DNA of 64,000 nucleotides, taken from assembly GCA_965222115.1 (NCBI GenBank), contig CBDCTJ010000007.1, positions 1,152,001-1,216,000 on the forward strand, read 5' to 3'. The position numbers and the translations under genes were made by a program. The stretch is from Planctomycetota bacterium (lineage in GTDB: Bacteria > Planctomycetota > PLA2 > JAEUHO01). The notes beneath the pieces are model-generated. The model did not search any database. It was not told the origin of the DNA and saw nothing but the letters and a program-made list of their open reading frames with translations. Positions 2,458-28,663 of this stretch are shown piece after piece (the stretch's first letter is position 1; every line of letters begins with the position of its first letter).

Positions 2458-3477
2458 TCAGTCTACATATCCTCGTAGCGAAGACCATAAGCCACTACAC
2501 AACAAACGGAAGCGGCGAAACGGCAAGTCGCTGCCGATACATATGCGGGGCAGCGTCAGTGGTGGTGTGTGCTTCGTTGCGAGCCCTTCGCTTGTTGTTA
2601 CGGCCCATGGCACGTTCTGTGCGCGCAATACGTCTTGCGCGCGTACATCGAAGTCTTCGGGCCTCCCGTTTGGATAGGCGAATACCGGCGAAACGCCGTC
2701 CGTCTGTGAGCGTATTGTTTCAATACTCTCTACAATTTCTTTATGAACATCTTCCTTACATTCAAGCCGCGAGAGTATTGGATGTGTCATGGTGTGTCCA
2801 CCGAAGCGAATCAAGTCATTTGTGCGGAGTGTCGCAACGTCGCTCCAGTCCATGAGTTGAAAGTGTTCATGGGTTGGCTCGTGCTCCACGTTCAACTCAT
2901 CTTCAAGCTGATGGACCAGCGACGCCCACGTGTGCACCGGTTGCCTCTTGAGTGCGCCGAGACACTTGTGAATTGCTTGCCCGCGAGACGCGTCGCTTTC
3001 GAGCGACAATTCGCCAAGCCCCAGGCATGTCGCATCGACGCGGTTGCGTTTGGATTGGTGTACTGCTAGATACACGCGATCCGGCCACAACACGCGCGAC
3101 GTTCCGATGGCGCCAGCGGCCAGGAAGATGGTTGCCGGTAGATTCAGGTCTCGAAGAACCGGCGCCGCCAACGTCGCATTGTTTCGAAAGCCGTCATCGA
3201 ACGTAATAGCTGCCGCACGCGGAGGCAGCCTGTCATGGGTCATGGCCTCCAGCGCGTCGTCAAGGTGCATGACGTGGTAGCGCTTGGCAATCCATGCAAG
3301 CTGTTGTCGGAAGGCGTGTACGGGAAGCTGATGCCAGCAAAACGGTGTGAGGCGTTCCCGGACCACACCGTGATACATCAAGATCAGTAGCTTGTTCCGA
3401 TTGCGGAAGCGAAACCACCGCTCAGCACCCAGTCCGCACAACAGCGCATCCAGCGTGGCGGCCAGTGCGCGTTTCAT
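2458..3477 (-). CDS. Polysaccharide deacetylase (NodB/CE4 family)
   Basis: ILMYHGV, ITFDDGF, GGHTMTHPIL and FAYPNG motifs; ATG 3477 overlaps the upstream TGA (ATGA). Confidence 0.9.
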   Translation of the reverse strand: MKRALAATLDALLCGLGAERWFRFRNRNKLLILMYHGVVRERLTPFCWHQLPVHAFRQQLAWIAKRYHVMHLDDALEAMTHDRLPPRAAAITFDDGFRNNATLAAPVLRDLNLPATIFLAAGAIGTSRVLWPDRVYLAVHQSKRNRVDATCLGLGELSLESDASRGQAIHKCLGALKRQPVHTWASLVHQLEDELNVEHEPTHEHFQLMDWSDVATLRTNDLIRFGGHTMTHPILSRLECKEDVHKEIVESIETIRSQTDGVSPVFAYPNGRPEDFDVRAQDVLRAQNVPWAVTTSEGLATKHTPPLTLPRICIGSDLPFRRFRLLCSGLWSSLRGYVD

Positions 3478-4715
3478 GCAGCCGCACCGTTTGCGCCCGT
3501 GCGCTGCTCGTGTCGATCCATGGCCGCCATCCATGCGTCGTGCTGTAAGGGCGCAATGACGTCCCACTCGTAGCGTTGCATGACGCGTTCTCGCCCGCGA
3601 GTCATCTGTCGCAGTGCTTCGCCTGGTCCATTCAGCATTTGAACCACGGCGGTTGCAAAAGACGCCGCCTCGTCGGCGCGCGCAATACCGTCGCCGAGCG
3701 CAAGCCCCTCAGCGCCAATTGACGTGGACACAACCGGCGCGTCCATTGCAAGTGCCTCGCAGATTTTTAACCGTGACCCCCCGCCGATGCGCAGGGGCAC
3801 CACGAAGGCAGACGTGGCGGCCATATAAGGACGAACATCCGGCACGCTGCCATGCACAGTGACGCCGTCCTTTGCTTCGGCTTGCTCAACGAGCCAACGG
3901 GGTGGATTGCGACCTACGATCGAAAAGCGCGTTGACGGGCGTACGGTGCTAATCGACGGGTAGACCTCGTTTAGAAACCACACGAGGCCGTCCTGATTCG
4001 GTCGCCAGTCCAATGCGCCAACGAAAAGCATGTTGTCGGGATCACGCTCGGCACCGGGTGGGCGCGCAAAGTAGTTGGCGTTCACGCCGTTGGGGACCAC
4101 CGTAACGTGTGGCTGACCGGTCCACGAAGCGATGCGATCGCCGTCGTGTTCACTCACGGCCGTTACGGCGTCGGCTGCTCCGAGCGCGCGCTCTTCAAAT
4201 CGATGCACCTTCTTGTGCTGCATACCAATGTAGCGTCGCCGTGCAAACGACGTTTCATTCTCGTGGTAGCGCTTCCAAATGTCGGCTTCGATGTTGTGCG
4301 CCGAGATACAGACCGGGACCGTTGCATCTGTGGGCACATTGGCCACCAGCGGCGTCCACTCCACATGAATCAAGTCGGGCTTCAGCGTGTGCAGGGCGTC
4401 GTGGACGGCGCGTTTCATGACCGACGTGCGATGACCCATCACCATGTAGGGCACCGGCAAAAGTACATTGCGGCCAAGGTCCCAGGCAAAGCGCAGGCCG
4501 TGTTTGACCAACGGGCGACGTGGGACTGGAAGGAGTGAGAGTCCGGCGCGCTTGGCTTGGTCGATGGCTTCATCCGGTAGCGGCGACTCGACGTGATAGG
4601 CGAGTGTAATTTCAAACTGGTCGGTAAGCCGCGCGAGCAGTTCCGAGGTGCGAATCCGTTTGCCCGAGTCGGCCGGATACGGCAGCGCTTCGTCTATGAC
4701 CAACACACGTTTCAT
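3474..4715 (-). CDS. Glycosyltransferase family 4 (PEP-CTERM-system sugar transferase type)
   Basis: LPYPADSGKRIR, VVPNGV, FVGALDWRPNQDG, VPLRIGGGSRLKICEALAM and PVVSTSIGAEG. Confidence 0.9.
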   Translation of the reverse strand: MKRVLVIDEALPYPADSGKRIRTSELLARLTDQFEITLAYHVESPLPDEAIDQAKRAGLSLLPVPRRPLVKHGLRFAWDLGRNVLLPVPYMVMGHRTSVMKRAVHDALHTLKPDLIHVEWTPLVANVPTDATVPVCISAHNIEADIWKRYHENETSFARRRYIGMQHKKVHRFEERALGAADAVTAVSEHDGDRIASWTGQPHVTVVPNGVNANYFARPPGAERDPDNMLFVGALDWRPNQDGLVWFLNEVYPSISTVRPSTRFSIVGRNPPRWLVEQAEAKDGVTVHGSVPDVRPYMAATSAFVVPLRIGGGSRLKICEALAMDAPVVSTSIGAEGLALGDGIARADEAASFATAVVQMLNGPGEALRQMTRGRERVMQRYEWDVIAPLQHDAWMAAMDRHEQRTGANGAAA

Positions 4716-6139
4716 GGGGAAGGCGTCTCCGGGGCAATTTCTGTGTCAAGGCGGCAAATGCAGTAGCGCATTTTGCCATTGGGCTCCGGCTGGAGCTGAT
4801 CCACGGCGTGTGTGCGGATCACCACTTCACCTCCGCATGCGTCGTCAATGTGGTCCACAAAATTGTTCAAATCCACGGGCTTGAAGTCGGTGCCTGGCAC
4901 GTAATACAGATCGATCGCGCCGAGCTCTTCTTGGACAATCTGCGCATCCACGATGCCGCCGGCGTCGTGGTGCAATCCACGCACGTCGAGCAGCACGCCC
5001 AACACGCGACGACCGCTTGGCATGATGAACGCGTCTGTCGAGCGCCCCTCCAGCGAAGTCAGCACAGGTCGCGCATCACCGCAAGGGCAGGGTTCGTCCG
5101 AGACACGTCCCCAGTCGCCCACCTCATAGCGAATCAGTGGCATGGCGCGATTGCAGAGGTCCGTGATCAGCAGATTGCCGTCGGCCGCGGTTTCGAGGTA
5201 CACAGTTGGCGTGTTGATGTGCAACTGTCCGTGCGTGCGGCATTCGGCGGCGACCCAACCGACTTCACGGGAGCCGTAGAATGTGGTTACGTCACCTCCA
5301 AAGGCACGCCGAATGCGCAGGCGTTGGTCCTCATACGTGGGTTCGGCCGTGAGTATGACGAGGGGAATCTTGACGCGCTCCCCGCGCGCGATTAGCCAGC
5401 GCGCCATGAGGTCGGCAGCGCTGGGGTAAGCTTGAAGCACTTCCGGGCGGAACCGTTTCAGTCGCTTCACGTATTTTGCGATGAGTTCGTCATCCATGAT
5501 CCCCGCGGGCAAATAGATTGTTCGAAGGATCAAGCGATTGAGCACGAATTGCTTAATGCGCCTCAGCAGCGACCGTGCGCCCTTGGGGAGATCTTGCGCG
5601 GCGCCCCATAGGTAGGCGACGCGATCACCGAGACCCCACCCCATGAGGCGGCGCATCGCTTCGGCCGAAGCGTTCTTGTCACGGATGGCTTCAAGGTTTT
5701 GAAAAAAAGGCGTGGGCGTTGACGTCGTCCCGCCGGTCGCGGCTCGCACAATCACGCGCCTAGGAAACGACGTCGATATGAGTGCCTCGATGTGGTGCCG
5801 TACGTCCGCTTTGCGGAGTCGGGGAAATGATGCAAGCACCCGTTCCGGGTCGCCGTTCGACGCATCTACGCCTCGTTCGCGTAGCGCATAGCGGTAGTAA
5901 GGAACCGTCGTCACCGCATGCAGAAGCATTGACCGCAATGCGTTACGTTGCACGTCGCGCTGTCGGTCGGATGACGATGTCAGCACGTTAGTGAACCGAC
6001 GAACATGCGGATGCCACGTGCCGCCTTGAACAATGCGTTCGTAGAGGGGGCGAACGAACGACCCAAAGAAGTGTCCGCGTCGCGTACGATGGAGCGCGGG
6101 TCCTCTGGCGCGCGCGCGCAATTCTACGTGCTCATGCAT
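4712..6139 (-). CDS. CapK / phenylacetate-CoA-ligase-like adenylate-forming enzyme (copy 1)
   Basis: TGGTTSTP loop, QAYPS, FYGSREVG, MPLIRYEVGD, EGRSTD, NGKMRY. Start is uncertain among 6139/6148/6151. Confidence 0.85.
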   Translation of the reverse strand: MHEHVELRARARGPALHRTRRGHFFGSFVRPLYERIVQGGTWHPHVRRFTNVLTSSSDRQRDVQRNALRSMLLHAVTTVPYYRYALRERGVDASNGDPERVLASFPRLRKADVRHHIEALISTSFPRRVIVRAATGGTTSTPTPFFQNLEAIRDKNASAEAMRRLMGWGLGDRVAYLWGAAQDLPKGARSLLRRIKQFVLNRLILRTIYLPAGIMDDELIAKYVKRLKRFRPEVLQAYPSAADLMARWLIARGERVKIPLVILTAEPTYEDQRLRIRRAFGGDVTTFYGSREVGWVAAECRTHGQLHINTPTVYLETAADGNLLITDLCNRAMPLIRYEVGDWGRVSDEPCPCGDARPVLTSLEGRSTDAFIMPSGRRVLGVLLDVRGLHHDAGGIVDAQIVQEELGAIDLYYVPGTDFKPVDLNNFVDHIDDACGGEVVIRTHAVDQLQPEPNGKMRYCICRLDTEIAPETPSP

Positions 6140-7538
6140 TTCGGGCATCATCAACCGCTGCCACCGGAGGGGGGGGAACAAGACATTTCGCGTATCGCAC
6201 TTTGCCGTTCGAATCCGGCTGCAACCTGACAACTTCGTGCATACGGACATCGACCTCCCCGCCACAAAACGCATGTAGACGGTTGTGGAGGGCCATGCGG
6301 TGGTGCGGTTCGTATCTGGGTCCGGGAACGAAGTAGACATCCAGGGCCGTGAGCTCGCGCTGGACGATTTGGGCATCCAAGATGCCCTGCCCCATATGTG
6401 ATACGCCGCGCACGTCGATTGCACAGCCCAGGACTCGAGTGCCACTCGGCATGATGAACACGTCGGTGGTTCGCCCCGTGAGCGACTTGAGTACCGGACG
6501 GGGATTGCCACACGGGCAGGGTGCGTTGCAGAGGGTGCCCATGTCACCCGTACGATACCGAATGAAGGGCATGGCTCGATTGTGTAGGTCGGTAGCAATC
6601 AGCTCGCCGCGGTCACTTGTCTCCAACCAGACGCCGGCCGTATTGATGTGCAGTCGATGGTGGGTTGGGCATTCTTCCGCAATCCACCCCAATTCCCGGG
6701 AACCATAAAATGTGAGGACGTTCGCGTTGAACTCCCGGGCGACACGCGCGCGCTGGTCCTCAAATATCTGCTCTGCGGTGAGAACCACCAGGGGTACGTT
6801 CAAGCGCCGATCGGCCGCCAAGAGGTACCGGGCAAGCAAGTCGGCGGCGCTTCCGTACGCCTGCATTACGCGCGGGCGAAATGCATCTATCTTTCTGATG
6901 TGTTCTCTCAGTATGGCATCGTCCATGGACGCGGCAGACAGGTACAGCGCGTGATCCACGAGGCGACTCTTAAGTACATGCTTGAGTTGCCGCAGTCCCT
7001 TTCGTGCCCCTTGCGGCAAGTCCTGGGCCGCGCCCCATAGAAACGCCACCCGGTCGTGCCGTTGCCATCCCATGCAAGCACGAAGCGCGTCACTCATCGC
7101 GTTCTTATTTAGAATTGCGTAATCGTCTTGGAAGTAAGGAAGGGGTACTGAAGTCGTTCCCCCGGTTCGAAACTGACGCACGCGGTGGGAAGGGTAGATC
7201 GGCGAGCGCAAATCCTCAGCATGGGCGCGGATATCGAGCCGAGATATCGTCGGCAGCGCGCCGAGCACAAGCTCGGGCGAGTCATGCCACGGATCCACGC
7301 CGGCACGCATCATGCGCAACCCATGCAGCGGGACGTATCGGTACGCGTACTGCAACAAGCTCGCTAAGTCCCGCCGCGCCCTGTGCTGTTGCTCATCGCG
7401 CGAAAGCCGGTATCGGTACTTGTAGCCCGCCACAAGCGAGGACCAACGCGAGCGGTGAAGTAGCGAACCCCAACGCTCCATGCGGCGTATAGCGCGGTCC
7501 CAAGTTTGCCGTTCGCGCTCGTGTACCAGCATGTTCAT
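6132..7538 (-). CDS. CapK / phenylacetate-CoA-ligase-like adenylate-forming enzyme (copy 2)
   Basis: TGGTTSVP, FYGSRELG, MPFIRYRTGD, GRTTD, NGKVRY; ATG 7538 follows the upstream stop at 7541. Confidence 0.85.
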   Translation of the reverse strand: MNMLVHERERQTWDRAIRRMERWGSLLHRSRWSSLVAGYKYRYRLSRDEQQHRARRDLASLLQYAYRYVPLHGLRMMRAGVDPWHDSPELVLGALPTISRLDIRAHAEDLRSPIYPSHRVRQFRTGGTTSVPLPYFQDDYAILNKNAMSDALRACMGWQRHDRVAFLWGAAQDLPQGARKGLRQLKHVLKSRLVDHALYLSAASMDDAILREHIRKIDAFRPRVMQAYGSAADLLARYLLAADRRLNVPLVVLTAEQIFEDQRARVAREFNANVLTFYGSRELGWIAEECPTHHRLHINTAGVWLETSDRGELIATDLHNRAMPFIRYRTGDMGTLCNAPCPCGNPRPVLKSLTGRTTDVFIMPSGTRVLGCAIDVRGVSHMGQGILDAQIVQRELTALDVYFVPGPRYEPHHRMALHNRLHAFCGGEVDVRMHEVVRLQPDSNGKVRYAKCLVPPPPVAAVDDARNA

Positions 7539-7540: not shown

Positions 7541-8653
7541 CTAGGCGTCTCTGCTGTCTGTCGCGGCCGGATACGTCGTTATCCACCCCTTGAGGTATCC
7601 CATGCCAAGCCCCGTGTGAGTCACGAAAAACGCCACGGGCAGCAAGGGCAAAAGCGCCCATCCGCGTTTGCTCGCAGTATGGATCGACGCAACCAGCGAA
7701 AGTAGCGCATACAGAGCGTAGGGCGCCACACCTAACCAACGCCATGGCGACGGGAGGAACCATGCCATCGCCACGGCAATCGGTATGCCGAGCACGAAGC
7801 CAAGCGGAATCAGCGACTCGATCTGAAAGGCGGAGCGGTGCTTTCGATGCAGGCGCGCGCGACCGAGGCCGTAGCGATGCATTTGCTTGTAGAGTGCGCG
7901 AAACGAACTACGCGGTTCGTATTCGACCGCCAGCGCGGGACTGGTATAGCAGTCGAGTCCTGCTTGCTCACAGCGGTAGTTGAACTCCACATCTTCACAC
8001 GCGTCAAAACGCGTGTCGAAGTTGCCGACCTTCTCAAACGTACGGCGGTGGTACATGGCCCCCGAACTGGTGGGGGCGACTTTGCGCTCGCTGTTGTCGT
8101 AGATTGTGCTGTGAACACTGTGGCCAAATGGTGATGTGCGTGCCGCGGCAACTGCACGTGCAGTCATTCCGTCTTGGCTTGGCACCAATGGCTGCGGGCG
8201 CGAAAGGCAGTCAGCGCCCGTTCGCTCAAAGAGATCGACCATATCGGCAAGCAGGGTGCGACTGGGTAGGTGGCAATGACCATCGATAATGGCCACGTAG
8301 GTGCCGCGCGAGTGCTCCACGCCGAGCGCACGTGCTGCCGAGGAGAGTCTCTTGGGGTTGTTGAGCACCCGCACGCGCGAATCGCGAGTCGCCACGCGTT
8401 TCACGCGCTCCACGGTGTTGTCGGTGCTCTCTCCATCCACGACCAGGACCTCAAGCGTGAGTGCGCCGAGTTCTTGCGAAAGAACCTCACCGAGCACGGC
8501 TTCGATATGTGCCGCTTCGTTGCGAACCGGCATGACAACCGTGATGTCCACAGGCGTACCATCGGAATTGGCAGCCGGGCTAGACGAAGTCAATGAGGCC
8601 TCGTGGGCGTTTGGTGAAAGGGAGGTGTCAGGCACGGGGCAACGGCTCCGCAT
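7541..8653 (-). CDS. Glycosyltransferase family 2 (ExoA-like)
   Basis: VVMPVRNEAAHI, VVDGESTDNT, IIDGH, GNFD...CEDVEFNYR, QMHRYGLGRARL and C-terminal TM helices. Start may be GTG 8635. Confidence 0.9.
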   Translation of the reverse strand: MRSRCPVPDTSLSPNAHEASLTSSSPAANSDGTPVDITVVMPVRNEAAHIEAVLGEVLSQELGALTLEVLVVDGESTDNTVERVKRVATRDSRVRVLNNPKRLSSAARALGVEHSRGTYVAIIDGHCHLPSRTLLADMVDLFERTGADCLSRPQPLVPSQDGMTARAVAAARTSPFGHSVHSTIYDNSERKVAPTSSGAMYHRRTFEKVGNFDTRFDACEDVEFNYRCEQAGLDCYTSPALAVEYEPRSSFRALYKQMHRYGLGRARLHRKHRSAFQIESLIPLGFVLGIPIAVAMAWFLPSPWRWLGVAPYALYALLSLVASIHTASKRGWALLPLLPVAFFVTHTGLGMGYLKGWITTYPAATDSRDA

Positions 8654-8801: not shown

Positions 8802-10208
8802 GTGATCCGCGAACCGTCCCTACGCACTTCCGGAGACCGCGTGTCCGTTTCAAGGCTCACTTGGCATCTTACCCATGGGCGGTGGAATCCCGGTTGGCGC
8901 AAACGCCTAAGGGAGATCCGGCGTGTCTCTCGCAAGGACACCGATGCCTTTGCCACGTGGCAGTCCTCGCGCATTGAGCAACACTTAACGTGGGTGCGTG
9001 ACCACATGCCTTACTTTCGTGATGCAGCGCCCACGCCTAACACAGCGCTCGCGCTTAACACATTATCGGCATGGCCAATTCTTTCGCGCGCGAATGTGCA
9101 AGAACACCGCGAAGCGCTTCGCGATTTTTCCCGCGGGCCCGAGACTCTAAACGTTGACGCCACCGGCGGATCCACGGGCGAACCCGTCCGGTTCTATAAC
9201 GATGCCGACTATCAATGCGCCACCTTTGCATCGGAACTGCTGCTTTACGAGTGGTGGGGTGTGAAGCCCTGGTCGCGGCTCGCTGTGATTTGGGGCGATG
9301 ACCGCGAACTCGCGTCGGTTTCGAAGATAGAACAGTGGATCGAACGACTCCTCGGACGTATTCACCTAAACGCGTTCGATGTGTCGCCGGAGGATCTTGC
9401 GGCATTTCGAGCCAAGTTGGTGAAGCATCGTCCTGCGGTTGTGCAGGGTTACGCCACCGCCCTTGAGTTGGTTGCCTCGTATCTGGTTGAGCAGGACGAG
9501 ATTCGGGTGCGCCCGTCCTTTATTCGTTCCGCCGCCGAATCGCTGTTGCCCGCGCAGCGCGATGTGATTGCGCGCGCATGGGGTCGACCCGTCTGTGATG
9601 TCTACGGTTCGAGAGAGAGCGCGAGTCTCGCGGCGCAGTGTCGTCATGGCGGCTTCCATGTGCTTGCGCACGGTAAAGTAATTGAGCTTGTTGATGACCG
9701 GGGCAGCGCCGTGCCGCCGGGCGAACCCGGGCGCGTATTGATTACCGATCTCACGAACCGCGCCTTTGGGTTTGTGCGTTATGAAAATGGTGATGTGGCG
9801 TCGTGGTCCAAGGAAACACGTTGCGCCTGCGGATCGCCTTATCCCATGCTCGAAAAAATTTATGGACGCACGAGCGACTTTATTACGACACCCGATGGGC
9901 GTCGGATTCACGGTGAGTGGTTCACTCATTTGTTTTACGATGTCGAGGCGGTTTCGCGCTTTCAACTCGTCCAGACCGGCACCCATCGCATCGAACTTTT
10001 GACGGAAGGCCCGGCGCAAGAGGACACGCTGGCACCGATTCTTGCGACTATGCGCGAGCGGCTTGGGCCCGACGTCGCAATAGCGTGGCGTCGCGTGGAC
10101 CAGATCCCGCGCACCACATCGGGCAAGCACCGATTCACAATTTCACACGTTCCCTATTTGCACGCCGACGTCTCATCGTCCAGACAAGCTGCAACGGAGT
10201 CTCCGTGA
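8802..10208 (+). CDS. CapK / phenylacetate-CoA-ligase-like adenylate-forming enzyme (copy 3)
   Basis: TGGSTGEP, QGYATAL, YGSRES, FVRYENGD, GRTSD, TSGKHRF. Confidence 0.88.
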   Translation: MIREPSLRTSGDRVSVSRLTWHLTHGRWNPGWRKRLREIRRVSRKDTDAFATWQSSRIEQHLTWVRDHMPYFRDAAPTPNTALALNTLSAWPILSRANVQEHREALRDFSRGPETLNVDATGGSTGEPVRFYNDADYQCATFASELLLYEWWGVKPWSRLAVIWGDDRELASVSKIEQWIERLLGRIHLNAFDVSPEDLAAFRAKLVKHRPAVVQGYATALELVASYLVEQDEIRVRPSFIRSAAESLLPAQRDVIARAWGRPVCDVYGSRESASLAAQCRHGGFHVLAHGKVIELVDDRGSAVPPGEPGRVLITDLTNRAFGFVRYENGDVASWSKETRCACGSPYPMLEKIYGRTSDFITTPDGRRIHGEWFTHLFYDVEAVSRFQLVQTGTHRIELLTEGPAQEDTLAPILATMRERLGPDVAIAWRRVDQIPRTTSGKHRFTISHVPYLHADVSSSRQAATESP

Positions 10209-17711: not shown

Positions 17712-19087
17712 GTGGGCCTCATTTCGTCAGGCTCCCATCCATCCAGTCGCTCCAGCGCACGTCGTTCTTCGGATCGACACGAGACGGCCACGACCAGCAA
17801 AGCCGGAACCCAATACCAATTCGACCGCTCCAGGTTGTGGGCGCCCAAGCCCGACACAAACAACAAGCCCAACGTGAAGATGAGCGTAAAGCACAACTTG
17901 GCAACGGCGATGTCCCATGCCGTTCCGCGCCGCTTTCGCCGCCGCATTTCGCGCCACCCCAGTAGCACGGCGCTGATCAGAAAGCCGAAAAACGTGAGCG
18001 TTCCGAGAAATCCGCGGGTAGCCAGTGCGTGGCCCACGAGGTTGTGGGGCATGAGTTTGTCGCCGTCCACGCGGCGCACGCGATAGGTTGTCCAATTTCC
18101 TGGACCCACACCCAATACCGGATTGTCTTTGAAGATTTCAAAGCCCACCTTGTAGCCATCGATGCGGCCAACCGTGGACGCATCACTTTCATACGTCTGG
18201 GAATCTGCCACCGATGCGACGCGTTTGAGCTGGGCGGGGCTCAGTGTGCCCACGAGCGCGATGCCCAGCCCCACGATGGCAGCCAGCATGATTCGCCGTG
18301 GCCAACCCTTCGGCACGATCATGAAGCTCCACAGGAGCGTGAGCACCGTAAGAATGAGGGCCGAGCGACTTGAGGTTTTAAAGACACAAAATAGCGAACC
18401 CAACATGTACCCCGTGGCACAGATACGGATGAAGATACTGCTCGTGTGTACGAGGACCCAGATCATGATCGGCATCGCGAAAACGATCGATGCCCCAAAC
18501 GAGTTGGGGTCGGCATTGGAGAGACCCGCACCGAGCATGCGCGGCACGCCCTGCTGGAAGTCCATTCGGCCGCCGTAAAACTCGCGAACGGAAATCACCA
18601 TGTAGAGACCGACGGCCGCACAGACGATCAGCAGGAAGAACAATAGTTGCCGGCGGGTCTGAACGATGTTAATGATCAGAAAGTAGGACACGATGGTCGT
18701 CAAGTGCCGAATGTGTTCTTCCTTCGCAATGGGAAAGTCGAAGGCCCATAGTGCTGAGAAGCTTGTGGCGAGAATAAACGCCAAGAGCCAAATGGACGTG
18801 CCCCACCGAATACTCAGTGCGCGCCCTTCCTGGACGCTGCGTGCGATTCCCGTGCCAACGGTGACTGCCAGAAGCACCACACCCAACAAGAAGCGCGGTC
18901 GCGCATCGCCGATGCTTGGGTAGTGCTCATCGATAAAACTCAGCGCCAAGAACATGTAGATCGCAAGCAGCCAGAAATACGGCGTCAGTCCGGTCAGTCG
19001 GGTTGCGGCGTACGGAAAGAAGCCACGGTAGGGAGGCGGCGTCCATGGCGCGTCGGCGCGTAGCAATGTGGGCAGTTTGGTCGTCAT
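17708..19087 (-). CDS. O-antigen ligase family protein / Wzy-type polymerase
   Basis: About 10-12 TM segments, ADPNSFG, TSSRSA, S..GR, NPVLGVGPGNW and PHN (Wzy_C-like). Confidence 0.85.
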   Translation of the reverse strand: MTTKLPTLLRADAPWTPPPYRGFFPYAATRLTGLTPYFWLLAIYMFLALSFIDEHYPSIGDARPRFLLGVVLLAVTVGTGIARSVQEGRALSIRWGTSIWLLAFILATSFSALWAFDFPIAKEEHIRHLTTIVSYFLIINIVQTRRQLLFFLLIVCAAVGLYMVISVREFYGGRMDFQQGVPRMLGAGLSNADPNSFGASIVFAMPIMIWVLVHTSSIFIRICATGYMLGSLFCVFKTSSRSALILTVLTLLWSFMIVPKGWPRRIMLAAIVGLGIALVGTLSPAQLKRVASVADSQTYESDASTVGRIDGYKVGFEIFKDNPVLGVGPGNWTTYRVRRVDGDKLMPHNLVGHALATRGFLGTLTFFGFLISAVLLGWREMRRRKRRGTAWDIAVAKLCFTLIFTLGLLFVSGLGAHNLERSNWYWVPALLVVAVSCRSEERRALERLDGWEPDEMRPT

Positions 19088-21215: not shown

Positions 21216-22160
21216 ATGCGCACCTGTGTTACCGGCGGAGCGGGATTCATCGGATCCACGCTCGTTGATCGCCTCGTCCGCGACGGCCACGATGTCGTTG
21301 TGTTGGATGACCTCAGTACGGGCCGACTCGAAAACCTCGCGTTCGCGCGTCAGCATATTGAGTTTATCGAGGGCGACCTGCGCGATGAGGCCACCGTGAG
21401 GCGCGCCGTGAAGGGTTGCGAAGTCGTCTTTCATCAGGCGGCGCTGGCCGCCGTGGCGCGCAGCGTCGAGAAGCCCGAGCTGGTCACCGATGTCAATGTT
21501 CGCGGAACGGTGAACGTGCTTGTGGCGGCGCGCGATGCGGGCGCCCGTCGTGTGGTGATGGCCAGCTCGTCATCGGTCTATGGCGATACGCCCGAGTTGC
21601 CCAAGCACGAGGCGATGACGCTTTCTCCACGTAGTCCCTATGCGGCGTCCAAAGCGTGCGGCGAGGCCTACTTTGAAGCATTCCAGGCGTCCTACGGTTT
21701 GGAGACGGTTCCGCTGCGCTACTTCAATGTCTATGGACTCCGCCAGTCACCGCGTTCGCTTTATGCCGCCGTGGTGCCGCTATTCGTTGAGGCCTTTTCC
21801 CTCGGTCGTCAACCCACGATCTACGGCGACGGTGAACAGACACGCGACTTTACGTTTATCGAAGACGTCGTGGAAGCCAACTGGAAGGCCGCGACCATGC
21901 CGCGCGCACCCGAGGGCCCCATGAATATTGGCGGGGGCGCTCGCATCAGCATCAATGAACTCGCGCGCACGATCGCCGCTTCGTTTGGCGTGCCGTGCGA
22001 GCCCGTCTATGAACCCACGCGGGTCGGCGATGTTCGTGATTCCCTGGCCGACATCACCCACGCGCGAACGCGTCTTGAATGGGAGCCGCAAACGGCACTT
22101 GCCGATGGCATCGCGGTGCTTGTGGACGCTGCCAAAGGCGCCGTGTCCTCCGCGACCTAA
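21216..22160 (+). CDS. NAD-dependent UDP-sugar 4-epimerase (WbpP/GalE-like SDR)
   Basis: VTGGAGFIGS, ASSSSVYGD, PRSPYAASK, LRYFNVYG, YGDGEQTRDFTFI. Confidence 0.92.
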   Translation: MRTCVTGGAGFIGSTLVDRLVRDGHDVVVLDDLSTGRLENLAFARQHIEFIEGDLRDEATVRRAVKGCEVVFHQAALAAVARSVEKPELVTDVNVRGTVNVLVAARDAGARRVVMASSSSVYGDTPELPKHEAMTLSPRSPYAASKACGEAYFEAFQASYGLETVPLRYFNVYGLRQSPRSLYAAVVPLFVEAFSLGRQPTIYGDGEQTRDFTFIEDVVEANWKAATMPRAPEGPMNIGGGARISINELARTIAASFGVPCEPVYEPTRVGDVRDSLADITHARTRLEWEPQTALADGIAVLVDAAKGAVSSAT

Positions 22161-22232: not shown

Positions 22233-23648
22233 ATGAGCGAAACAACGGCCGCTGCGCGCCTCAACGCCATGCGCGAGAAGATTCGTTCGCGCACGCTGCG
22301 CTACGGCGTGATTGGCATGGGATACGTGGGCCTGCCCCTGGCAGTCGAGTTTGCCAAACAGGGCGTCGATGTCACCGGCTTTGAAGTCGATACCGACAAG
22401 GTCAAAGCCCTCCGCGCAGGCACGTCCTATATTCCCGATGTACCGAGCGACGACGTAGCCGCCTTGGTCCAGGCGGAAACGTTGCGCGCCACACTCGACT
22501 TTGGCCTTCTCGCCGACATGGATGTCATCAGCATTTGTGTCCCCACACCGCTTTCCAAGAGCCGTGATCCCGATCTTAGTTACGTTGATGCCGCCACCAA
22601 GTGCGTCGAAGCCACGCTCAAGTCCGGTCAACTTGTGATTCTTGAAAGCACGACCTATCCGGGCATGACTGAGGAGTACATTCTTCCGCGATTGGAAGCG
22701 TGTGGCTACGAGGTTGGTGGTGAGTTTTGGCTAGCGTTTTCGCCCGAGCGCGTGGACCCGGCCAACGACACCTACGGCATCAAGAACACGCCCAAGGTCG
22801 TGGGCGGCGTCGGCGATGCTTCCACCGAACTTGCAACGTCGTTTTACGAGATCGCCATCGATCACGTGCACTCGGTGAGTTCTGCAGCGGCGGCCGAGAT
22901 GGTGAAGTTGCTGGAAAACACCTTCCGTAGCGTCAACATTGGTTTGGTCAATGAAGTCGCCATGATGTGTGACAAGCTCGGCCTCAATGCCCGAGAAATC
23001 ATCCGCGCGGCGGCCACGAAGCCCTTTGGTTTTATGCGCTTCGAACCCGGCCCCGGCATCGGCGGTCACTGCATTCCGCTCGATCCGATCTATCTCTCGT
23101 GGAAGTTGCGCACACTTGACTACCGCGCCCGATTCGTCGAGCTGGCCCAAGACGTCAATACGTCCATGCCCGAGTACCTCGTAGACCGCGTGGCGCGTGC
23201 CCTGAATGAGCGCGAGCGAAGCGTGCGCGGCTCGAATATTGTTGTTGTTGGGGTGGCCTACAAGAAGGACGTAGACGACACCCGGGAATCGCCTGCCTTG
23301 GACGTCATGGGACGATTGATTGAGTCCGGGGCTCTTGTGTCCTACATCGATCCCTTTGTAGACTCTGTGCGTGTCGGAGACCGCGAGCTGCGAGCGGTAC
23401 CGTGTAGTGAAGCCGTGCTGTCGAATGCGGACCTTGTAGTTGTGACGACCGATCACACGAATATCGATTGGCCCCTGATTGGGCGATGCGCCACCACCAT
23501 CGTGGACGCGCGTGGCGTCGTCCCACGCGATGGCGTGACGGGCGTTCTTTGGCCTTTGAGCGGTCAACCCACACGCGGTTCCGGCAACGTCGCCTCCACG
23601 AACAGCACAACCCATCGCACCGGCAAGGCCGTGGGCGCGGAGTCGTAG
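22233..23648 (+). CDS. UDP-N-acetylhexosamine 6-dehydrogenase (WbpA/WbpO/WecC family)
   Basis: GMGYVGLPLA, ICVPTP, LESTTYPG, SPERVDP, KLLENTFR, PGPGIGGHCIPLDP, GVAYKKDVDDTRESP. Confidence 0.93.
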   Translation: MSETTAAARLNAMREKIRSRTLRYGVIGMGYVGLPLAVEFAKQGVDVTGFEVDTDKVKALRAGTSYIPDVPSDDVAALVQAETLRATLDFGLLADMDVISICVPTPLSKSRDPDLSYVDAATKCVEATLKSGQLVILESTTYPGMTEEYILPRLEACGYEVGGEFWLAFSPERVDPANDTYGIKNTPKVVGGVGDASTELATSFYEIAIDHVHSVSSAAAAEMVKLLENTFRSVNIGLVNEVAMMCDKLGLNAREIIRAAATKPFGFMRFEPGPGIGGHCIPLDPIYLSWKLRTLDYRARFVELAQDVNTSMPEYLVDRVARALNERERSVRGSNIVVVGVAYKKDVDDTRESPALDVMGRLIESGALVSYIDPFVDSVRVGDRELRAVPCSEAVLSNADLVVVTTDHTNIDWPLIGRCATTIVDARGVVPRDGVTGVLWPLSGQPTRGSGNVASTNSTTHRTGKAVGAES

Positions 23649-23649
23649 C

Positions 23650-25275
23650 GTGAGTTGGTTTTCTCGATCATCCGGGCACTTGATTGCTTCGCTGTGGAAG
23701 TATCGCTGGACCTATTTGGTCCCCATTGCCACGTTGCTGCTTCCGGCCACGATTTACGCCCTTCGCTTGCCACCCACGTATGACGCCGAGGCGTTTGTGC
23801 AGGTCACCGAGATGCGCGACGCCGATCGCCGCTCAGATGTCGTTGCCCACCGCTCCATGTCCGACAACAAGCTCGTTTCCTTGGCGCGTAACAAGATTCT
23901 CAAGACCGAGAACCTCAAGGCGCTCGTCCCGTGGTTGGCCCCGGAGGGTTCCGAAGACGACAAGAACCTCCTTCTCGAACTCGCGGAACGCGTGGAGTAC
24001 GACCGCCTGGGACCGCAACTCTTCAAGATCAAGATCACCGACGAGGATCCTTTGGTGGCCAAGAATGCGGTAAACGCGCTGGTGTACAAGTTCGCCGAAG
24101 GTGAGCGCGCCGGTCCTCTCGCCAAAGCCAAGAGTAGCGAAGAGTTCTTCCGCGAACAACGAGACGCCGCCAGCAAAGAAGCCGAGAGGGCTGGCAAGGC
24201 CGTCCACACGTTTCTAAAGTCACATCCCGATGTCCAGGAAGGTCAGCGCGAGTTTCTCGACAAACAGCTCCAGTCCACACAGACGCAGATCCAGAACCTG
24301 CTAACCCTCGCCAGCACGTACAAGGCACAAGAAGAAGAGTATCGGCGCAAACTCACGGGCGGGGAAGGGGCTGCGTCGAATCAAAAGACGCGCCCGGATT
24401 CAACGGAAGAGATTCGTCTCAAGGGACAGCTCAAGAACATTCAAGACGGCCTGGGCAAGGCCAAGTTCGAATTGGCGCGGACTTCGGCACGTTTTCCCGA
24501 GAAGAGTAGACGTGTGCGCATTGCACGCCAAGACTTGGAGCGCCTCGAGCGCGAAGAGGGCCGTATCGTTGGCAAGCTCGATGAAGAGCGAAAGCGCCAG
24601 GACAAACTTTGGAAAGCCAAGATCCGCCAGGAGAGTACGGGGAGCCGAAACGCTTTGGAAAAGCAGCTTGCACGAGCGGAGAAGGACTTCGAGAACACCC
24701 AGGCGGATCTCATCGTCCTTCGCGAACGGGCGGCATCGCTTCGCAAACGCGTCATTGCCATCCCGACCTTGGCGCTCAAGCTGAATCCACTCAAGGCCGA
24801 GTTTGCCCTCAAGCAGAAAGACCTCGTCGAAGTTACGCAGAAGCACTTGGCGGCTCTGCAGGACCTCAAATACTACAAAGAGGCCAAGTCCGACTTCGTT
24901 ACGCCGTATACCGTGACCCAAGAAGCCGTAGCGCCGGCCAAGCCCAGCGGACCGTCGCGTATGAAGTATCTGCTTTCGGCGTTGGTCCTTGGTGGACTCT
25001 TGGGCTACGGCATCATGCTGCTGCGCCGCAAGTTTGACGAGGGATCGGATGTTACCCCCGACGACATTGCTGGGCTGCTTCCGGGCGCATTGGTTGTATC
25101 CGTGCCGCGCCTCGGTAGCGCGCCAAGGCGCAAGTCGGGTGGGTTGATGCTCGACGTGGTCTGCGCCACGTGGGTGGGCGCGTTGATGGGCATCACCGTG
25201 CTTGCCATCGCCGTCCACAAACACTTGATTGATGGCCCACCCTTTATTCGATCGCTGATTGGAATGGATGTATGA
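23650..25275 (+). CDS. Polysaccharide co-polymerase / chain-length determinant (GumC/Wzc N-terminal type)
   Basis: N-terminal TM + PPTYDAEA, long coiled coil, VAPAKPSGPSR + TM, and a further C-terminal TM. Confidence 0.85.
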   Translation: MSWFSRSSGHLIASLWKYRWTYLVPIATLLLPATIYALRLPPTYDAEAFVQVTEMRDADRRSDVVAHRSMSDNKLVSLARNKILKTENLKALVPWLAPEGSEDDKNLLLELAERVEYDRLGPQLFKIKITDEDPLVAKNAVNALVYKFAEGERAGPLAKAKSSEEFFREQRDAASKEAERAGKAVHTFLKSHPDVQEGQREFLDKQLQSTQTQIQNLLTLASTYKAQEEEYRRKLTGGEGAASNQKTRPDSTEEIRLKGQLKNIQDGLGKAKFELARTSARFPEKSRRVRIARQDLERLEREEGRIVGKLDEERKRQDKLWKAKIRQESTGSRNALEKQLARAEKDFENTQADLIVLRERAASLRKRVIAIPTLALKLNPLKAEFALKQKDLVEVTQKHLAALQDLKYYKEAKSDFVTPYTVTQEAVAPAKPSGPSRMKYLLSALVLGGLLGYGIMLLRRKFDEGSDVTPDDIAGLLPGALVVSVPRLGSAPRRKSGGLMLDVVCATWVGALMGITVLAIAVHKHLIDGPPFIRSLIGMDV

Positions 25276-26039
25276 GCAACGTCTACGATCACCCATCGGG
25301 TCCCCAATCGCCCGCCAACACGGCGCTGGCGCCGCTTGGTAATGGCGGCGGACTGCTCGCGCTGCAGGAAGACAGAGAGCGATTCGTTCAAGTCAATGAC
25401 CCGGACCGTTTTTCGACGGATGGCTACTTGCGATTGACGGCACACATTCTCATGCAGAGTCAGCGCCAGCAGTTTCGAACCATTGGCGTGATTAGCTCAC
25501 GCGATGGCGAGGGGCGCTCAGCGGCGGCCGCCAATCTGAGCGTGTGTTTGGCGCGCGCGCGCGGACGCACCGGCAACGTGCTTTTGGTAGATGGTGACGC
25601 ACGGCGTCGCACATTGAGTCGCCTCTTGTGTGGTCGTCATGAGCAAAACCGGACCGACGTCTATTACGAGGATCCGGGCGATACGGCCAAGCATCCTGAG
25701 ATCTTTACAACATCATTTCCCGGTCTCGACATTATGACGGCGCCGGAAGCGGCGGATGCGCTGACGATTCATGATCCCGCGGCCTGGGCGCATACGTTTC
25801 ATGAGCTGAAGTTTAAATATGCCCAAATCGTCATCGATTGTCCGTCCATCCTCGACAACCCCGAGGGTATGGTCCTGCGAGACTGCGTAGAGGAACTCGT
25901 GCTCGTTGTTGAGTCCGGGCAGACCTCAAAGAAAACCATCGAACGCGCCCTTGGTGGTGTTCGGCGTCGCGTCATCGGAGTCATTCTCAACGGTGGTGTG
26001 AAGCGACGGCAAGCCAAGAAAGCAACTTCGTCCCGATAG
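25272..26039 (+). CDS. CpsD/CapB-family BY-kinase-like P-loop protein (degenerate)
   Basis: ISSRDGEGRS (Walker A with K replaced by R), VLLVDGD, IVIDCP, VIGVILN; ATGA coupling to the co-polymerase. Confidence 0.82.
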   Translation: MSNVYDHPSGPQSPANTALAPLGNGGGLLALQEDRERFVQVNDPDRFSTDGYLRLTAHILMQSQRQQFRTIGVISSRDGEGRSAAAANLSVCLARARGRTGNVLLVDGDARRRTLSRLLCGRHEQNRTDVYYEDPGDTAKHPEIFTTSFPGLDIMTAPEAADALTIHDPAAWAHTFHELKFKYAQIVIDCPSILDNPEGMVLRDCVEELVLVVESGQTSKKTIERALGGVRRRVIGVILNGGVKRRQAKKATSSR

Positions 26040-26128
26040 CCGGGCCACGAAATATTCGATAAGAGTGCTAGCCCGGCGGCGCGTGCGTACGATCCTGCCG
26101 ATTCCCACCCCAGTAGTTTTCCACCCGA

Positions 26129-27571
26129 ATGACACCAGTTACTGCTGCTACCGCGACCGCTTCTGAGTCAGCGTCTTCGACGCGAGAGAGCGCGCGTGCC
26201 GTTTTCCGGGCAGCACCCATACCGCCGCAAGCACGTCCCATGTCCCCGGCACGTCCTTCCGCAGTCTTGATTCCACCTATAGTGGTGTATCTGGCGTCCA
26301 TCGGTGTTGTTGCACTCGTCCACGGCATACTCGTGTCTAAAGTGTCGGTGCTCACCGTGGCGCGCGCCATGTTCATTGTGGCGGTGACCATTCCGTCGCT
26401 CTACGTGGTCCGATCCATCATCGTGGGCCTTCGCGGTCAACGCTGGTGCGACGCGCTTTTACCCGCCGTTGCTGCCATCTTCATCGTGTTACTCGATCTG
26501 CTCATCCCAGGCTTCATGCTGAACTGGCCTACGGCTGCGCTCCTGTTCGTGCTGTCACTTTCGGCTGGACCGCTTACGCGCATTTGGCAACAGTGGTGGG
26601 TTCGACATCGTCCTGCCCGCGTAACACTGTTGGCATCCACCGAGTGGGGAGCCGATGAGGCCACGCGCCGGTTGGAACTCGTCCCCGGACTCGTCGTGAC
26701 CGGCGTCGTAATCCCCGGTTGCGATCCAGCATCGGCGCAACGCATCTTGCGACGACCCGTATCGGGCGATATCTCAGATCTATCCGAGGACATGGATATC
26801 GAGAAACGGCTCATCGTCTCCTGCCCATCCCGCGATACCAACGTCAACTCCACAATTGCCCGACTGGTGGCTCGCGGTCATACCATTAGTAGCGAATCGG
26901 CGGTCTTGCGCGCCGCGGAAGGGCGCATCGACACCGACTTAGCCAATCCTCTGAGCTTGCTCTTGGGCCGCCCCCGCCACTGGTTCAGCAATGCGGCCTC
27001 ACGCGTCATGGACGTGCTGTTGTCATTTGTAATGTTGATTGTGCTCGCGCCGCTTTTTGCCATCGTGGCGCTGGCGATATTGATCGAGGACGGTCGCCCC
27101 ATCTTCTACCACCAGCGTCGTACCGGCCTGCGCGGTAGGCTGTTTGATGTGATCAAGTTCCGCAGCATGTATCGGGATGCCGAAAGTCGTTCCGGTCCTG
27201 TGTGGGCGGCAGAGAATGATCCCCGCATCACCAACGTGGGGCGCCTGCTGCGCCGCACGCGTATCGACGAACTCCCCCAATTGTTCAACGTACTTGTTGG
27301 CCAAATGGCGCTCGTCGGTCCGCGTCCCGAGCGTCCTCATTTCTTCGACATCTTGCGCCGCGACGTACCACTCTTTGAACTGCGAACGATCGTGCGCCCC
27401 GGCATTACCGGCTGGGCACAAATCCGTGCGCCGTATGCGGCCGGCCCCGAAGACGCGCGCTACAAGCTCGAATACGATCTCTACTACGTGAACCGTCGCT
27501 CCCCTTGGTTTGACTTAGCTATCCTCTTCGAAACAGTGGGTGTTGCGTTCTCGGGCAGAGGCGCCCGCTAG
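26129..27571 (+). CDS. Priming phosphoglycosyltransferase (WcaJ/WbaP-type sugar transferase)
   Basis: RVMDVLLS, KFRSM, DPRITNVGRLLRRTRIDELPQLFNVL, LVGPRPERP, RPGITGWAQ, KLEYDLYY. Confidence 0.93.
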   Translation: MTPVTAATATASESASSTRESARAVFRAAPIPPQARPMSPARPSAVLIPPIVVYLASIGVVALVHGILVSKVSVLTVARAMFIVAVTIPSLYVVRSIIVGLRGQRWCDALLPAVAAIFIVLLDLLIPGFMLNWPTAALLFVLSLSAGPLTRIWQQWWVRHRPARVTLLASTEWGADEATRRLELVPGLVVTGVVIPGCDPASAQRILRRPVSGDISDLSEDMDIEKRLIVSCPSRDTNVNSTIARLVARGHTISSESAVLRAAEGRIDTDLANPLSLLLGRPRHWFSNAASRVMDVLLSFVMLIVLAPLFAIVALAILIEDGRPIFYHQRRTGLRGRLFDVIKFRSMYRDAESRSGPVWAAENDPRITNVGRLLRRTRIDELPQLFNVLVGQMALVGPRPERPHFFDILRRDVPLFELRTIVRPGITGWAQIRAPYAAGPEDARYKLEYDLYYVNRRSPWFDLAILFETVGVAFSGRGAR

Positions 27572-27811: not shown

Positions 27812-27955
27812 CTAGGTGGCGAGACATCAAGGGTTGATCTCCGCGGACGTGGTGAATGCGCCAACGGCGCGGGCTCTCCTCGGATCTTGAAACGACGTGT
27901 GGAGAGGGACAAAGACTGTCAACTCAAGGGGAAGATGCGCGGTACAGGGTCCGAA

Positions 27956-28663
27956 TTATGAGGTTCTTGATGCGTTCACACTGGGCACCTTGCGAGCAAG
28001 CGTCGCCTGCTGCATGAAGAGGCGGGAGAGTCCCATCCAGCGTAGCACCCGCTCAATCACACCCATTCCAGGGAGGGTGACCGGAAGCGGCATGTAGCGC
28101 TTTGCGGTCACGACCTCAAATCCCGCCTTCTCCAGGTGAGCTCGGGTCCTGGCCAGCGTCCACCGGTTGGGTAGCCATCGAGGATCGAAGTGACCCCGCC
28201 ATACCCCCAAGCGCAGCCCCATCGGTGTTGGGTCCGCGACGATGATGTGTCCGCCGGGCACAATCACGCTATGACAGGCAGCGAGTGCTGCGCGAGCGTC
28301 AGGGATGTGCTTGAGGGTCGCGACGATCGTAACCGCATCGAAGTGTTCACGCTCAAACGTCATTTCTTCCACCCGACTACACACGACGTTTAGGCCCTGT
28401 TCGCGAGCCACCTCAACGAGGTCCTCACTCGCTTCGAGCCCCGTCAGGGAAATGCCTCGGAACGCATCGCGGAAGACGTGGAGCATTGTTCCGTCGGCTG
28501 TGCCAACGTCGAGGAGACATGCGCCGAATTTTCGCGGCGGTTGCGCCGCGAACCCCTGGCGTAGATACGCGATCACCGTTTCCGCGCGGCGGCGGAATCC
28601 ATCTCGAAAGATCCGCGAGGTCTTTCGCATTTCGTGATAGCGGTCAAAGTCTTTAGCAGTCAT
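27956..28663 (-). CDS. Class I SAM-dependent methyltransferase
   Basis: LLDVGTADG motif I, FDAV...LKHIPD, VPGGHIIV. Start ATG 28663 is assumed. Confidence 0.85.
   Translation of the reverse strand: MTAKDFDRYHEMRKTSRIFRDGFRRRAETVIAYLRQGFAAQPPRKFGACLLDVGTADGTMLHVFRDAFRGISLTGLEASEDLVEVAREQGLNVVCSRVEEMTFEREHFDAVTIVATLKHIPDARAALAACHSVIVPGGHIIVADPTPMGLRLGVWRGHFDPRWLPNRWTLARTRAHLEKAGFEVVTAKRYMPLPVTLPGMGVIERVLRWMGLSRLFMQQATLARKVPSVNASRTS

Follow-up and report, generated by a model that had tools for sequence, protein, structure and literature searches.

Within the window (the whole 64,000-nucleotide stretch of planctomycete DNA that was analysed), a polysaccharide gene cluster probably attaches amino acids to its polymer by two routes, one drawing on ATP and the other on charged tRNA. 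We read it, with a probability of about 0.5, as an exopolysaccharide or capsule pathway of the Wzx/Wzy type in which two independent routes of amino-acid tailoring operate in the cytoplasm. Each route has a known precedent, and the combination of gene copies and fusions found here is a new arrangement.

The locus contains three intact CapK_C ligases, two CE4 deacetylases, a GT4-GNAT fusion and a HexNAc-type dehydrogenase with a C4-epimerase. Open frames were found for every gene listed in an earlier note on this DNA. Likely start sites were set from 4-nt stop/start overlaps and homologue lengths, the longest ORFs being too long in several genes. The features are as follows.

2458..3477, minus strand: CE4a, IcaB/PgaB-like polysaccharide de-N-acetylase (PF01522, E 2e-14; best NCBIfam match PgaB/IcaB, below cut-off; TFDDG and HxxxH; no signal peptide seen in the sequence)
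3474..4715, minus: GT4 glycosyltransferase, TIGR03087-like (203 bits, cut-off 317)
4712..6151, minus: ligase 1, CapK_C/VpsH-family adenylating enzyme, 479 aa (PF27533; 28% identity to VpsH over 411 aa; tandem duplicate of ligase 2)
6132..7538, minus: ligase 2, CapK_C/VpsH family, 468 aa (motifs and VpsH match; directly after the GT2)
7541..8653, minus: GT2 with C-terminal membrane helices (PF00535; hydrophobic segments at 281 and 306)
8802..10208, plus: ligase 3, CapK_C/VpsH family, 468 aa (separate, older lineage; coupled to the GT4-FemX fusion)
10205..12418, plus: GT4 with FemX-like tandem GNAT (Acetyltransf_6), 737 aa (predicted aminoacyl-tRNA transferase)
12437..12901, minus: small membrane protein with three hydrophobic segments (no family match; locus membership unsure)
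13295..14458, minus: GT4 glycosyltransferase (profile matches; EX7E motif)
14455..16767, minus: beta-helix, Ig-like and FN3 protein, 770 aa, probably secreted (ESM Atlas matches and homologues)
16764..17711, minus: CE4b, XrtA-system polysaccharide deacetylase (TIGR03006, 391.7 bits, cut-off 276.2)
17708..19087, minus: Wzy-like polymerase/O-antigen ligase family (PF04932)
19084..20766, minus: Wzx flippase (PF13440, PF01943)
21216..22160, plus: UDP-HexNAc(A) C4-epimerase, TviC/WbpP/WbgU-like (TviC 199 bits, below cut-off; WbpP E 7e-62, WbgU E 4e-58)
22233..23648, plus: UDP-HexNAc 6-dehydrogenase (TIGR03026, 401 bits)
23650..25275, plus: chain-length determinant, Wzz/Wzc N-terminal part (Pfam and NCBIfam profile matches)
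25272..26039, plus: tyrosine autokinase-like protein (TIGR03018 and TIGR01007, both below cut-off)
26129..27571, plus: initiating polyprenyl phosphoglycosyltransferase (TIGR03025, 309.5 bits, cut-off 295.55)
27956..28663, minus: SAM methyltransferase (Pfam match; probably belongs to the neighbouring MATE operon and not to the EPS locus)

The initiating transferase, Wzx, Wzy, chain-length regulator and kinase of a Wzx/Wzy-dependent pathway are all present, and no Wza was found within the window. The TIGR03006 score of CE4b, above its cut-off, is an XrtA-associated trait. None of TIGR03087, 03088, 03097, 03007, 03018, 03013 and 03019 was above cut-off in the window, TIGR03019 not being hit at all, and neither an exosortase nor PEP-CTERM substrates were found among the window ORFs scanned. 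The two deacetylases of the earlier note both keep their metal-binding motifs, and the fusion of a GNAT to a GT4 that it described is confirmed. Its dehydrogenase and epimerase pair is likewise present. By its PDB matches the dehydrogenase is HexNAc-type (ManNAc-type E 3e-65 and Cap5O E 4e-58, versus 2e-37 for UDP-glucose dehydrogenase), its substrate being either the ManNAc or the GlcNAc form.

The methyltransferase that had been counted as flanking this module is present, but nothing ties it to the EPS locus: it is encoded on the opposite strand, 384 bp beyond the final EPS gene and co-oriented with a MATE transporter, and related loci gave weak matches to it of 24-33 bits. Its membership of the module is unsupported. 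A 770-aa beta-helix/FN3 gene inside the wzx-wzy operon had been overlooked. Its product gave no Pfam match at 1e-4, has about 18 long homologues at 35-75% identity and matches beta-helix clusters of the ESM Atlas at 0.81, which is a lead only; it is a candidate lyase/hydrolase or polymer-binding protein.

All three ligases retain the P-loop, YGSRE, RYxxGD, GRxxD, the C-terminal GK lysine and the Cys/His cluster. Because all adenylation motifs are kept, no copy looks dead; dead copies, which the earlier note had considered for two of the three, are rejected, and its three CapK-like genes in one Wzx/Wzy cluster are borne out. PF27533 (CapK_C) is annotated on all three in the precomputed ESM atlas. 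Ligases 1-3 match Vibrio cholerae VpsH with 132, 114 and 134 bits across most of their length (25-28% identity), versus 34-76 bits for four PaaK-type proteins. With these four as outgroups, trees place the three ligases together with VpsH and apart from PaaK (support 99 and 100). VpsH lies on a sister branch outside the 31-row clade that holds the window ligases, so that orthology to VpsH was not found; given this position and the low identity, its function is transferable at family level only.

The automatic names of these genes are "phenylacetate-CoA ligase", the closest solved folds are CoA ligases, and the top Foldseek matches are PaaK1 and PaaK2, as would be expected of catabolic phenylacetate-CoA ligases or F390 synthetases lying by chance within a polysaccharide cluster. 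This explanation has a negligible probability. It is contradicted by the tree, by TIGR02155 (PaaK) scores of 23-52 bits against a cut-off of 646 (E. coli PaaK reaches 790) and by TIGR03335 (F390 synthetase), which gave 17.7 bits or no hit against 458.7. The PaaK motif YGYGxFTGG is missing from the window ligases and there are no paa genes in the region scanned. PaaK or F390 identity is rejected on the missing motif and these two profiles. In a further F390 synthetase test, TIGR02304, the ligases reached 45-68 bits (cut-off 251.9).

For the predicted structure of ligase 1 (pLDDT 89.7), the best matches are the PaaK-like short ANL enzymes (Z 23.6-26.7), the amide ligase ClxA among them; next come EhpF and GH3 amido synthetases (Z 14-16), other ANL enzymes giving 12.4 or less. 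ClxA/ClxC, NatL2 and AjiA1 share this structural subclass with the window ligases (Z 23.6-25.2; PMC9400959, PMC12519233). Enzymes of the ClxA/ClxC type are CoA-independent, adenylate their substrate and then form the amide or ester directly, with paralogues acting in sequence (PMC9400959, PMC12519233). They differ in their aryl-acid substrates, in belonging to natural-product pathways and in an identity of about 20%. The three ligases and VpsH carry a basic amphipathic N-terminal extension that PaaK lacks, which fits a substrate at the membrane surface.

The statement that the role of CapK is not established is out of date. According to the available part of a 2026 report, vpsH of V. cholerae is genetically required for glycine on a lipid-linked uronate disaccharide, the glycine-free disaccharide builds up in a vpsH vpsI double mutant, and the glycine of VPS sits on a uronic acid residue; in that part of the text, the activation chemistry of VpsH is left open by its authors (PMC13463779). 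This glycine genetics makes the amidation idea the likely one of the two alternatives in the earlier note, and uronate adenylation and amidation are supported by homology to VpsH as well as by the genetic result. The first route, an ATP-dependent amidation of carboxyl groups by the ligases, is therefore considered likely, by analogy to VpsH, from which alone the genetics comes. VpsH resembles the window ligases in its CapK_C family, fold class and motifs and has no signal peptide. The vps genes likewise form a Wzx/Wzy cluster with a HexNAc dehydrogenase, but VpsH is a single copy. A vps-like cluster among the related loci (L002) has WecB/WecC and, unlike the window, no annotated CE4 or FemX gene.

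At least 569 relatives of the window ligases were found. Using a profile from a 29-sequence ligase alignment, with neighbour genes called by a codon model, a sample of 78 related loci was obtained, 66 from non-Poribacteria and 12 from Poribacteria, 37 being complete. Neighbour counts are lower bounds, since, of 269 unlabelled genes lying no more than 4 kb from a ligase, 237 were Pfam-scanned (594 are unlabelled overall). Glycosyltransferases lie near 54 of the 66 non-Poribacteria ligase loci and none was detected near the 12 Poribacteria members, which indicates that the CapK_C family is not glycan-linked everywhere. Two or more near-full ligase copies occur in 12 of the 78 loci, so that multiple ligases are not rare. 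Three copies occur in 2 loci, each with one copy that is broken or cut. An Acetyltransf_6 GNAT, whose co-occurrence the earlier note had proposed to check, was found near only 5 of the 78 ligase loci.

Ligases 1 and 2 are 51% identical and tree neighbours (support 86-90); ligase 3 shares 29% identity with ligase 1 and 52% with a relative, L006_1075. Monophyly of the three is rejected (p-AU 1.7e-51), and the AU test rules out a local triplication of one gene. A somewhat unlikely possibility is that there are two ligase activities only, ligases 1 and 2 being lineage-specific duplicates that are redundant or act as a heterodimer on one reaction: their pocket-region motifs are nearly identical, and most relatives show one copy at this position, often fused to GT2. 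However, a second genome keeps both intact on contigs of the same size (P0004, 71% to ligase 1; P0030, 65% to ligase 2), and their retention of every motif at 49% divergence suggests that selection acts on each. Ligase-glycosyltransferase fusions were found in L004, L006, L026, P0022, P0031 and P0032, and in L006, P0022, P0031 and P0032 a ligase-2-type ligase is fused to a homologue of the GT2. Ligases 1 and 2 travel with GT2 and ligase 3, translationally coupled to the GT4-GNAT gene, with GT4-FemX; the two types therefore probably act at different assembly steps.

The second route rests on the model of the GNAT domain (pLDDT 96.6). Its top structural match is FemX (4II9; Z 20.9, rmsd 3.7, 300 residues aligned), which also ranks first in Foldseek, and its top eight matches are all aminoacyl-tRNA transferases (FemX, FemA, Sbb17, MprF; Z 16.9-20.9), other GNATs, including tandem ones, giving 14.1 or less. 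There is no match in PDB at the sequence level. The only NCBIfam match of the domain is a weak one to BspF (20 bits versus 775). The fusion family is conserved (57 clusters): a basic helix of net charge +3 to +9 is present in all 55 members compared, YK at 312-313 in 54 and K313 in all 55, the lysine being tentatively equated, by position and motif, with FemX Lys305. A basic helix and a catalytic lysine are hallmarks of FemX in the available text of PMC12945691. The domain is thus a predicted FemX-type aminoacyl-tRNA transferase.

This prediction bears on the other alternative of the earlier note, in which the GNAT would move acyl groups, activated by the ligases as acyl-CoA or acyl-AMP starting from small acids, onto amines freed by the deacetylases. 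The coupling of ligase 3 to the GT4-GNAT gene is in its favour, as are the CoA ligases among the nearest folds and the finding that 9 of 14 ligase-1/2-clade proteins (contigs of at least 8 kb) sit on contigs sized exactly like one with a fusion match. But the FemX-like Z score, set against 14.1 or less for other GNATs, makes acyl transfer unlikely; an acetyl-CoA motif is fixed at no single position (9 of 55 members at the best one), and the scarcity of Acetyltransf_6 near ligases, with none annotated in the vps-like L002, also disfavours what we hold to be a very doubtful alternative.

In a further, unlikely, reading the polarity is reversed: one or more of the ligases would activate a free acid by adenylation and pass it directly to a sugar amine exposed by one of the two CE4 enzymes, the glycan being the nucleophile. 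There are two deacetylases for one FemX domain, CE4 genes lie near 18 of 78 ligase loci versus 6 for a nucleotide-sugar dehydrogenase (within 10 kb; 3 of the 37 complete loci, and one of the 6 probably an epimerase cross-match), ClxA-type ligases couple free acids to amines, and ligase 3 has a sequence unlike that of the other two ligases near the YGSRE and WG motifs. The position of the VPS glycine on the uronic acid argues against it, as do three loci in which the ligase is fused to an aspartate-decarboxylase-like domain, which point to a small amine as co-substrate.

In the preferred reading, the initiating transferase would start a repeat unit on undecaprenyl-PP, to which one GT2 and three GT4 domains contribute; judging from the gene families, the unit would contain a HexNAc uronic acid supplied by the dehydrogenase and the epimerase. 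Using ATP, the CapK/VpsH-type ligases would adenylate a carboxyl group of this lipid-linked unit, most probably C6 of the uronate, and couple it straight to an amino acid or small amine with no part played by CoA, adenylation being suggested by motifs and fold. A CE4 would strip off an N-acetyl group, and the amine so exposed would receive an amino acid that the FemX-like domain takes from aminoacyl-tRNA, at the step of the GT4 to which this domain is fused. We regard this tRNA-dependent N-aminoacylation as moderately probable from the fold and by analogy to VimE/VimA. The resulting polymer would bear amino acids in both carboxamide and N-linkage, besides some free amines, tuning charge and cohesion. 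Against this reading stand the few ligase loci with a nucleotide-sugar dehydrogenase nearby, the Poribacteria members with no glycosyltransferase detected and the CoA ligases among the closest solved folds, and one locus-encoded uronate may not need three ligases.

A deacetylase-plus-GNAT logic has already been proposed for VimE/VimA (PMC7468200) and, in the available text, for HfsH/HfsK (PMC5362036). VimE and VimA of Porphyromonas/Tannerella resemble the window, by description, in combining a CE4 with a Fem-related GNAT that puts an amino acid onto the amine of an amino-uronic sugar, VimA setting Ser versus Gly alongside VimE (PMC7468200). They differ in that the GNAT stands alone and the product anchors T9SS cargo; the word "tRNA" is absent from the text of that paper (PMC7468200). 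The diamino sugar of the Vim pathway needs WbpB/E/D, which were not found in the window locus. Caulobacter HfsH and HfsK likewise pair a deacetylase with a tandem GNAT (nearest structure FemX) on an exopolysaccharide, but HfsK has no glycosyltransferase fusion and, in the available text, no CapK partner is described (PMC5362036).

To call the cluster an undescribed system was an overstatement, since a one-CapK version is tabulated for Rubrivivax gelatinosus (psc1), Thauera MZ1T and Rhodoferax, with CapL, an XrtA deacetylase, a second deacetylase, a FemAB-related gene and Wzx/Wzy (PMC3684757). These clusters differ in having one CapK (likened by name), a stand-alone FemAB of the TIGR03019 type and several asparagine-synthase genes; the Rubrivivax capK was a transposon hit in a biofilm screen (PMC3684757). 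Exosortase, Wza and asparagine synthase are absent among the window locus genes scanned. What looks undescribed is the conserved GT4-FemX fusion family, the GT2-ligase fusions and the tandem ligase duplication: neither a GT4-FemX fusion nor a multi-CapK cluster is described in the titles and abstract openings of the literature searched, and a keyword search for CapK with capsule or taurine found nothing. The host is seemingly uncultured, and the same gene set is available in cultured models, which limits the value of this particular locus.

A more speculative and distinctly improbable proposal is a ribosome-free peptide assembly line on the glycan. GT4-FemX would first add a sugar to the lipid-linked repeat and next an amino acid taken from charged tRNA; the three ligases, working one after another like ClxA and ClxC, would either extend the uronate with di- or tripeptide side chains or form an amide bond between the uronate and the tRNA-derived amino group. 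If true, a peptide-bearing exopolysaccharide would be conserved across an uncultured planctomycete lineage, and the fusion would be the first of a glycosyltransferase to a tRNA-dependent transferase among the literature and database matches found.

The attachment of amino acids to bacterial exopolysaccharides is partly known, with genetics but no enzymology for VpsH, and in the available text of the literature cited the amino-acid donor is not demonstrated for HfsK, VimA and the PEP-CTERM FemAB proteins. The GT4-FemX fusion would tie a tRNA-type transferase to a single, defined step in the cytoplasm. For one ligase type, the GT2-ligase fusions indicate at which step the acceptor is likely to arise; for another ligase subclade, the decarboxylase fusions point to a candidate amine. 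Thousands of polysaccharide-cluster genes named "phenylacetate-CoA ligase" are probably mislabelled.

The EPS locus comprises 18 genes in four blocks within 2458-27571, with overlaps of mostly 4 nt. The gene list that an earlier note had drawn up for this locus is borne out by Pfam and NCBIfam:

Block A, minus strand: GT2 glycosyltransferase (7541-8653), ligase 2 (6132-7538), ligase 1 (4712-6151), GT4 glycosyltransferase, CE4a polysaccharide deacetylase (2458-3477)
Block B, plus strand: ligase 3 (8802-10208), GT4-FemX fusion of a glycosyltransferase and a FemX-like tandem GNAT (10205-12418)
Block C, minus strand: wzx, wzy, CE4b polysaccharide deacetylase (16764-17711), beta-helix gene (14455-16767), GT4 glycosyltransferase
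Block D, plus strand: epimerase, dehydrogenase, chain-length protein, kinase, initiating transferase
Between blocks: one small membrane gene

The methyltransferase described in that note as flanking the module sits outside the locus, in the same orientation as a MATE gene. The GC content of the locus is about 60%, flat, and matches the remainder of the window. Planctomycetota is the phylum of three named homologues of the GT4-FemX fusion and also of the two genome loci nearest to this one, which makes a planctomycete host probable.

Other genes of the window were also recorded. A BBP7 beta-barrel porin gene (485-2182, minus strand) lies 275 bp beyond CE4a on the same strand and could be an export partner for a locus without Wza. 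The beta-helix gene, inside the wzx-wzy operon, encodes a probably secreted 770-aa beta-helix/Ig/FN3 protein that has about 18 long homologues (35-75% identity) and gave nothing at 1e-4 in a Pfam scan; it may be a novel polysaccharide lyase or polysaccharide-binding protein. The plus-strand region 32422-37387 encodes a CPBP/Rce1-like intramembrane protease that weakly matches sortase families and, after it, two proteins that are membrane-anchored and bear carboxypeptidase-regulatory-like repeats.

CapK is linked to the type 1 capsule of Staphylococcus aureus. All three ligases carry PF27533, named CapK_C in the Atlas, and each retains the full set of adenylation motifs, so that the sequences do not bear out the possibility that two of them are catalytically dead. 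Most of the ligase length aligns with V. cholerae VpsH at 114-134 bits (using a sequence obtained via the syntenic Vibrio homologue P0266, which may differ from the strain of PMC13463779), as against 34-76 bits with four PaaK-type proteins. A grouping with catabolic PaaK, also considered previously, is contradicted by a 171-row FastTree and a 42-row IQ-TREE, both of which, on a sample collected with window-derived queries and biased toward the relatives of these ligases, unite VpsH and the three ligases in one clade apart from PaaK. The window ligases are CapK_C members, neither PaaK nor VpsH orthologues, VpsH being their sister branch.

Ligases 1 and 2 share 51% identity, are neighbours in the tree and are both retained in a second genome. 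Ligase 3 represents a distinct lineage, and monophyly of the three is rejected (AU test, p-AU 1.7e-51). It has counterparts at loci L006 and L058, both of which contain a ligase-1/2-side copy as well. On these relationships, two ligase types form the conserved unit and the third copy arose by a later duplication.

With respect to function, a V. cholerae vpsH vpsI double mutant builds up a lipid-linked hexose-HexNAcA disaccharide without glycine; the same source points out the resemblance of VpsH to CapK and acyl-CoA ligases and leaves the activation chemistry open (PMC13463779). The best structural matches of the ligase 1 model (pLDDT 89.7) are PaaK-like enzymes, followed by GH3 amido synthetases. 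Within the PaaK-like group, ClxA and NatL2 convert adenylates into amides or esters (PMC9400959, PMC12519233). At their N termini the ligases also carry a basic amphipathic extension that PaaK lacks and that would fit action at the membrane face. Four relatives have a homologue of the window GT2 joined in one protein with a ligase-1/2-type domain.

Among 78 genome loci with a related ligase (41 of them shorter than 20 kb), glycosyltransferases were detected near the ligase in 54, CE4s in 18 and dehydrogenases in six. A Poribacteria clade of 12 members (L009-L015, L017, L020, L022, L034, L040) had no glycosyltransferase detected near the ligase; a sulfatase precedes the ligase in all eight loci whose upstream gene was scanned, and an ARMT1-like gene follows it in four. 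This clade likely has a different role. The scarcity of dehydrogenases and the absence of detected glycosyltransferases from these 12 loci weigh against a universal uronate role for the family. Asparagine-synthase-like genes (nine loci) and heparinase-like lyases (four loci) hint at uronates where they occur. In three loci the ligase is fused to an aspartate-decarboxylase-like domain (L028 9884-11602, L036 9860-11584, L037 9866-11584), and in L028 a second, stand-alone decarboxylase gene adjoins the fusion, a pattern that points to beta-alanine, or an amine resembling it, as the co-substrate. Possible amine-supply genes are the serine-hydroxymethyltransferase-like and ATP-grasp genes after the ligase in L048 (13315-15948), the TPP-enzyme genes beside it in L049 and L060, and a class III aminotransferase in L060. 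Seven loci of different phyla (L018, L031, L042, L044, L047, L066, L067) have a PGA_cap (CapA-like) gene no more than 4 kb from the ligase. In L026 (1-7770), a 2590-aa open frame adjoining a flagellar cap gene combines a ligase domain with several domains each of the GT2 and GT4 types.

The tailoring module is real, intact and conserved. It had been put forward as a candidate for an undescribed system, but CapK and CapL already appear together with two deacetylases and a FemAB-related gene in a table for Rubrivivax psc1, a set conserved in Thauera and Rhodoferax (PMC3684757). The Desulfuromonadales locus L029 likewise contains almost the entire module, although with a single ligase and an unfused GNAT. 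At least two near-full ligase copies are present in 12 of the 78 loci, and three only in L033 and L063, one copy being broken or cut in each. Screening of the open-access literature by title and abstract start found no GT4-FemX fusion, GT2-ligase fusion or three-ligase cluster.

The GT4-FemX fusion (737 aa) belongs to a conserved family: GT4 and Acetyltransf_6 domains occur together in 57 of the 119 non-self matches among those listed, at 41-74% identity. Of 14 ligase-1/2-clade proteins on contigs of at least 8 kb, nine lie on a contig of exactly the same length as that of a fusion match, with which they are probably co-located. Longer versions (P0094, P0098, P0109) have an additional N-terminal domain of about 330 aa, and P0109 a further GNAT. 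The GNAT domain is modelled as a tandem GNAT (pLDDT 96.6) whose top eight structural matches are FemX, FemA, Sbb17 and MprF (Z 16.9-20.9; Foldseek concordant), whereas other GNATs reach at most 14.1, except one function-unknown protein at 16.7. In this domain the family conserves a YK motif as well as a basic helix, and no acetyl-CoA motif was found at a fixed position. FemX itself relies on a basic helix together with a lysine; its relative Orf11 transfers glycine from tRNA to streptothrisamine (PMC12945691). With an aminoacyl-tRNA donor, which requires no ligase, the ligase route and the FemX-like GNAT route would be uncoupled.

There are precedents for the pairing of a deacetylase with such a GNAT. 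VimA, together with the CE4 VimE, determines whether Ser or Gly is placed on an amino-uronic sugar (PMC7468200), and the FemX-like HfsK has been proposed to acylate amines exposed by HfsH (PMC5362036); the available text of these sources does not demonstrate tRNA use for either protein. By analogy, the predicted working of the module would resemble that of VpsH plus VimE/VimA.
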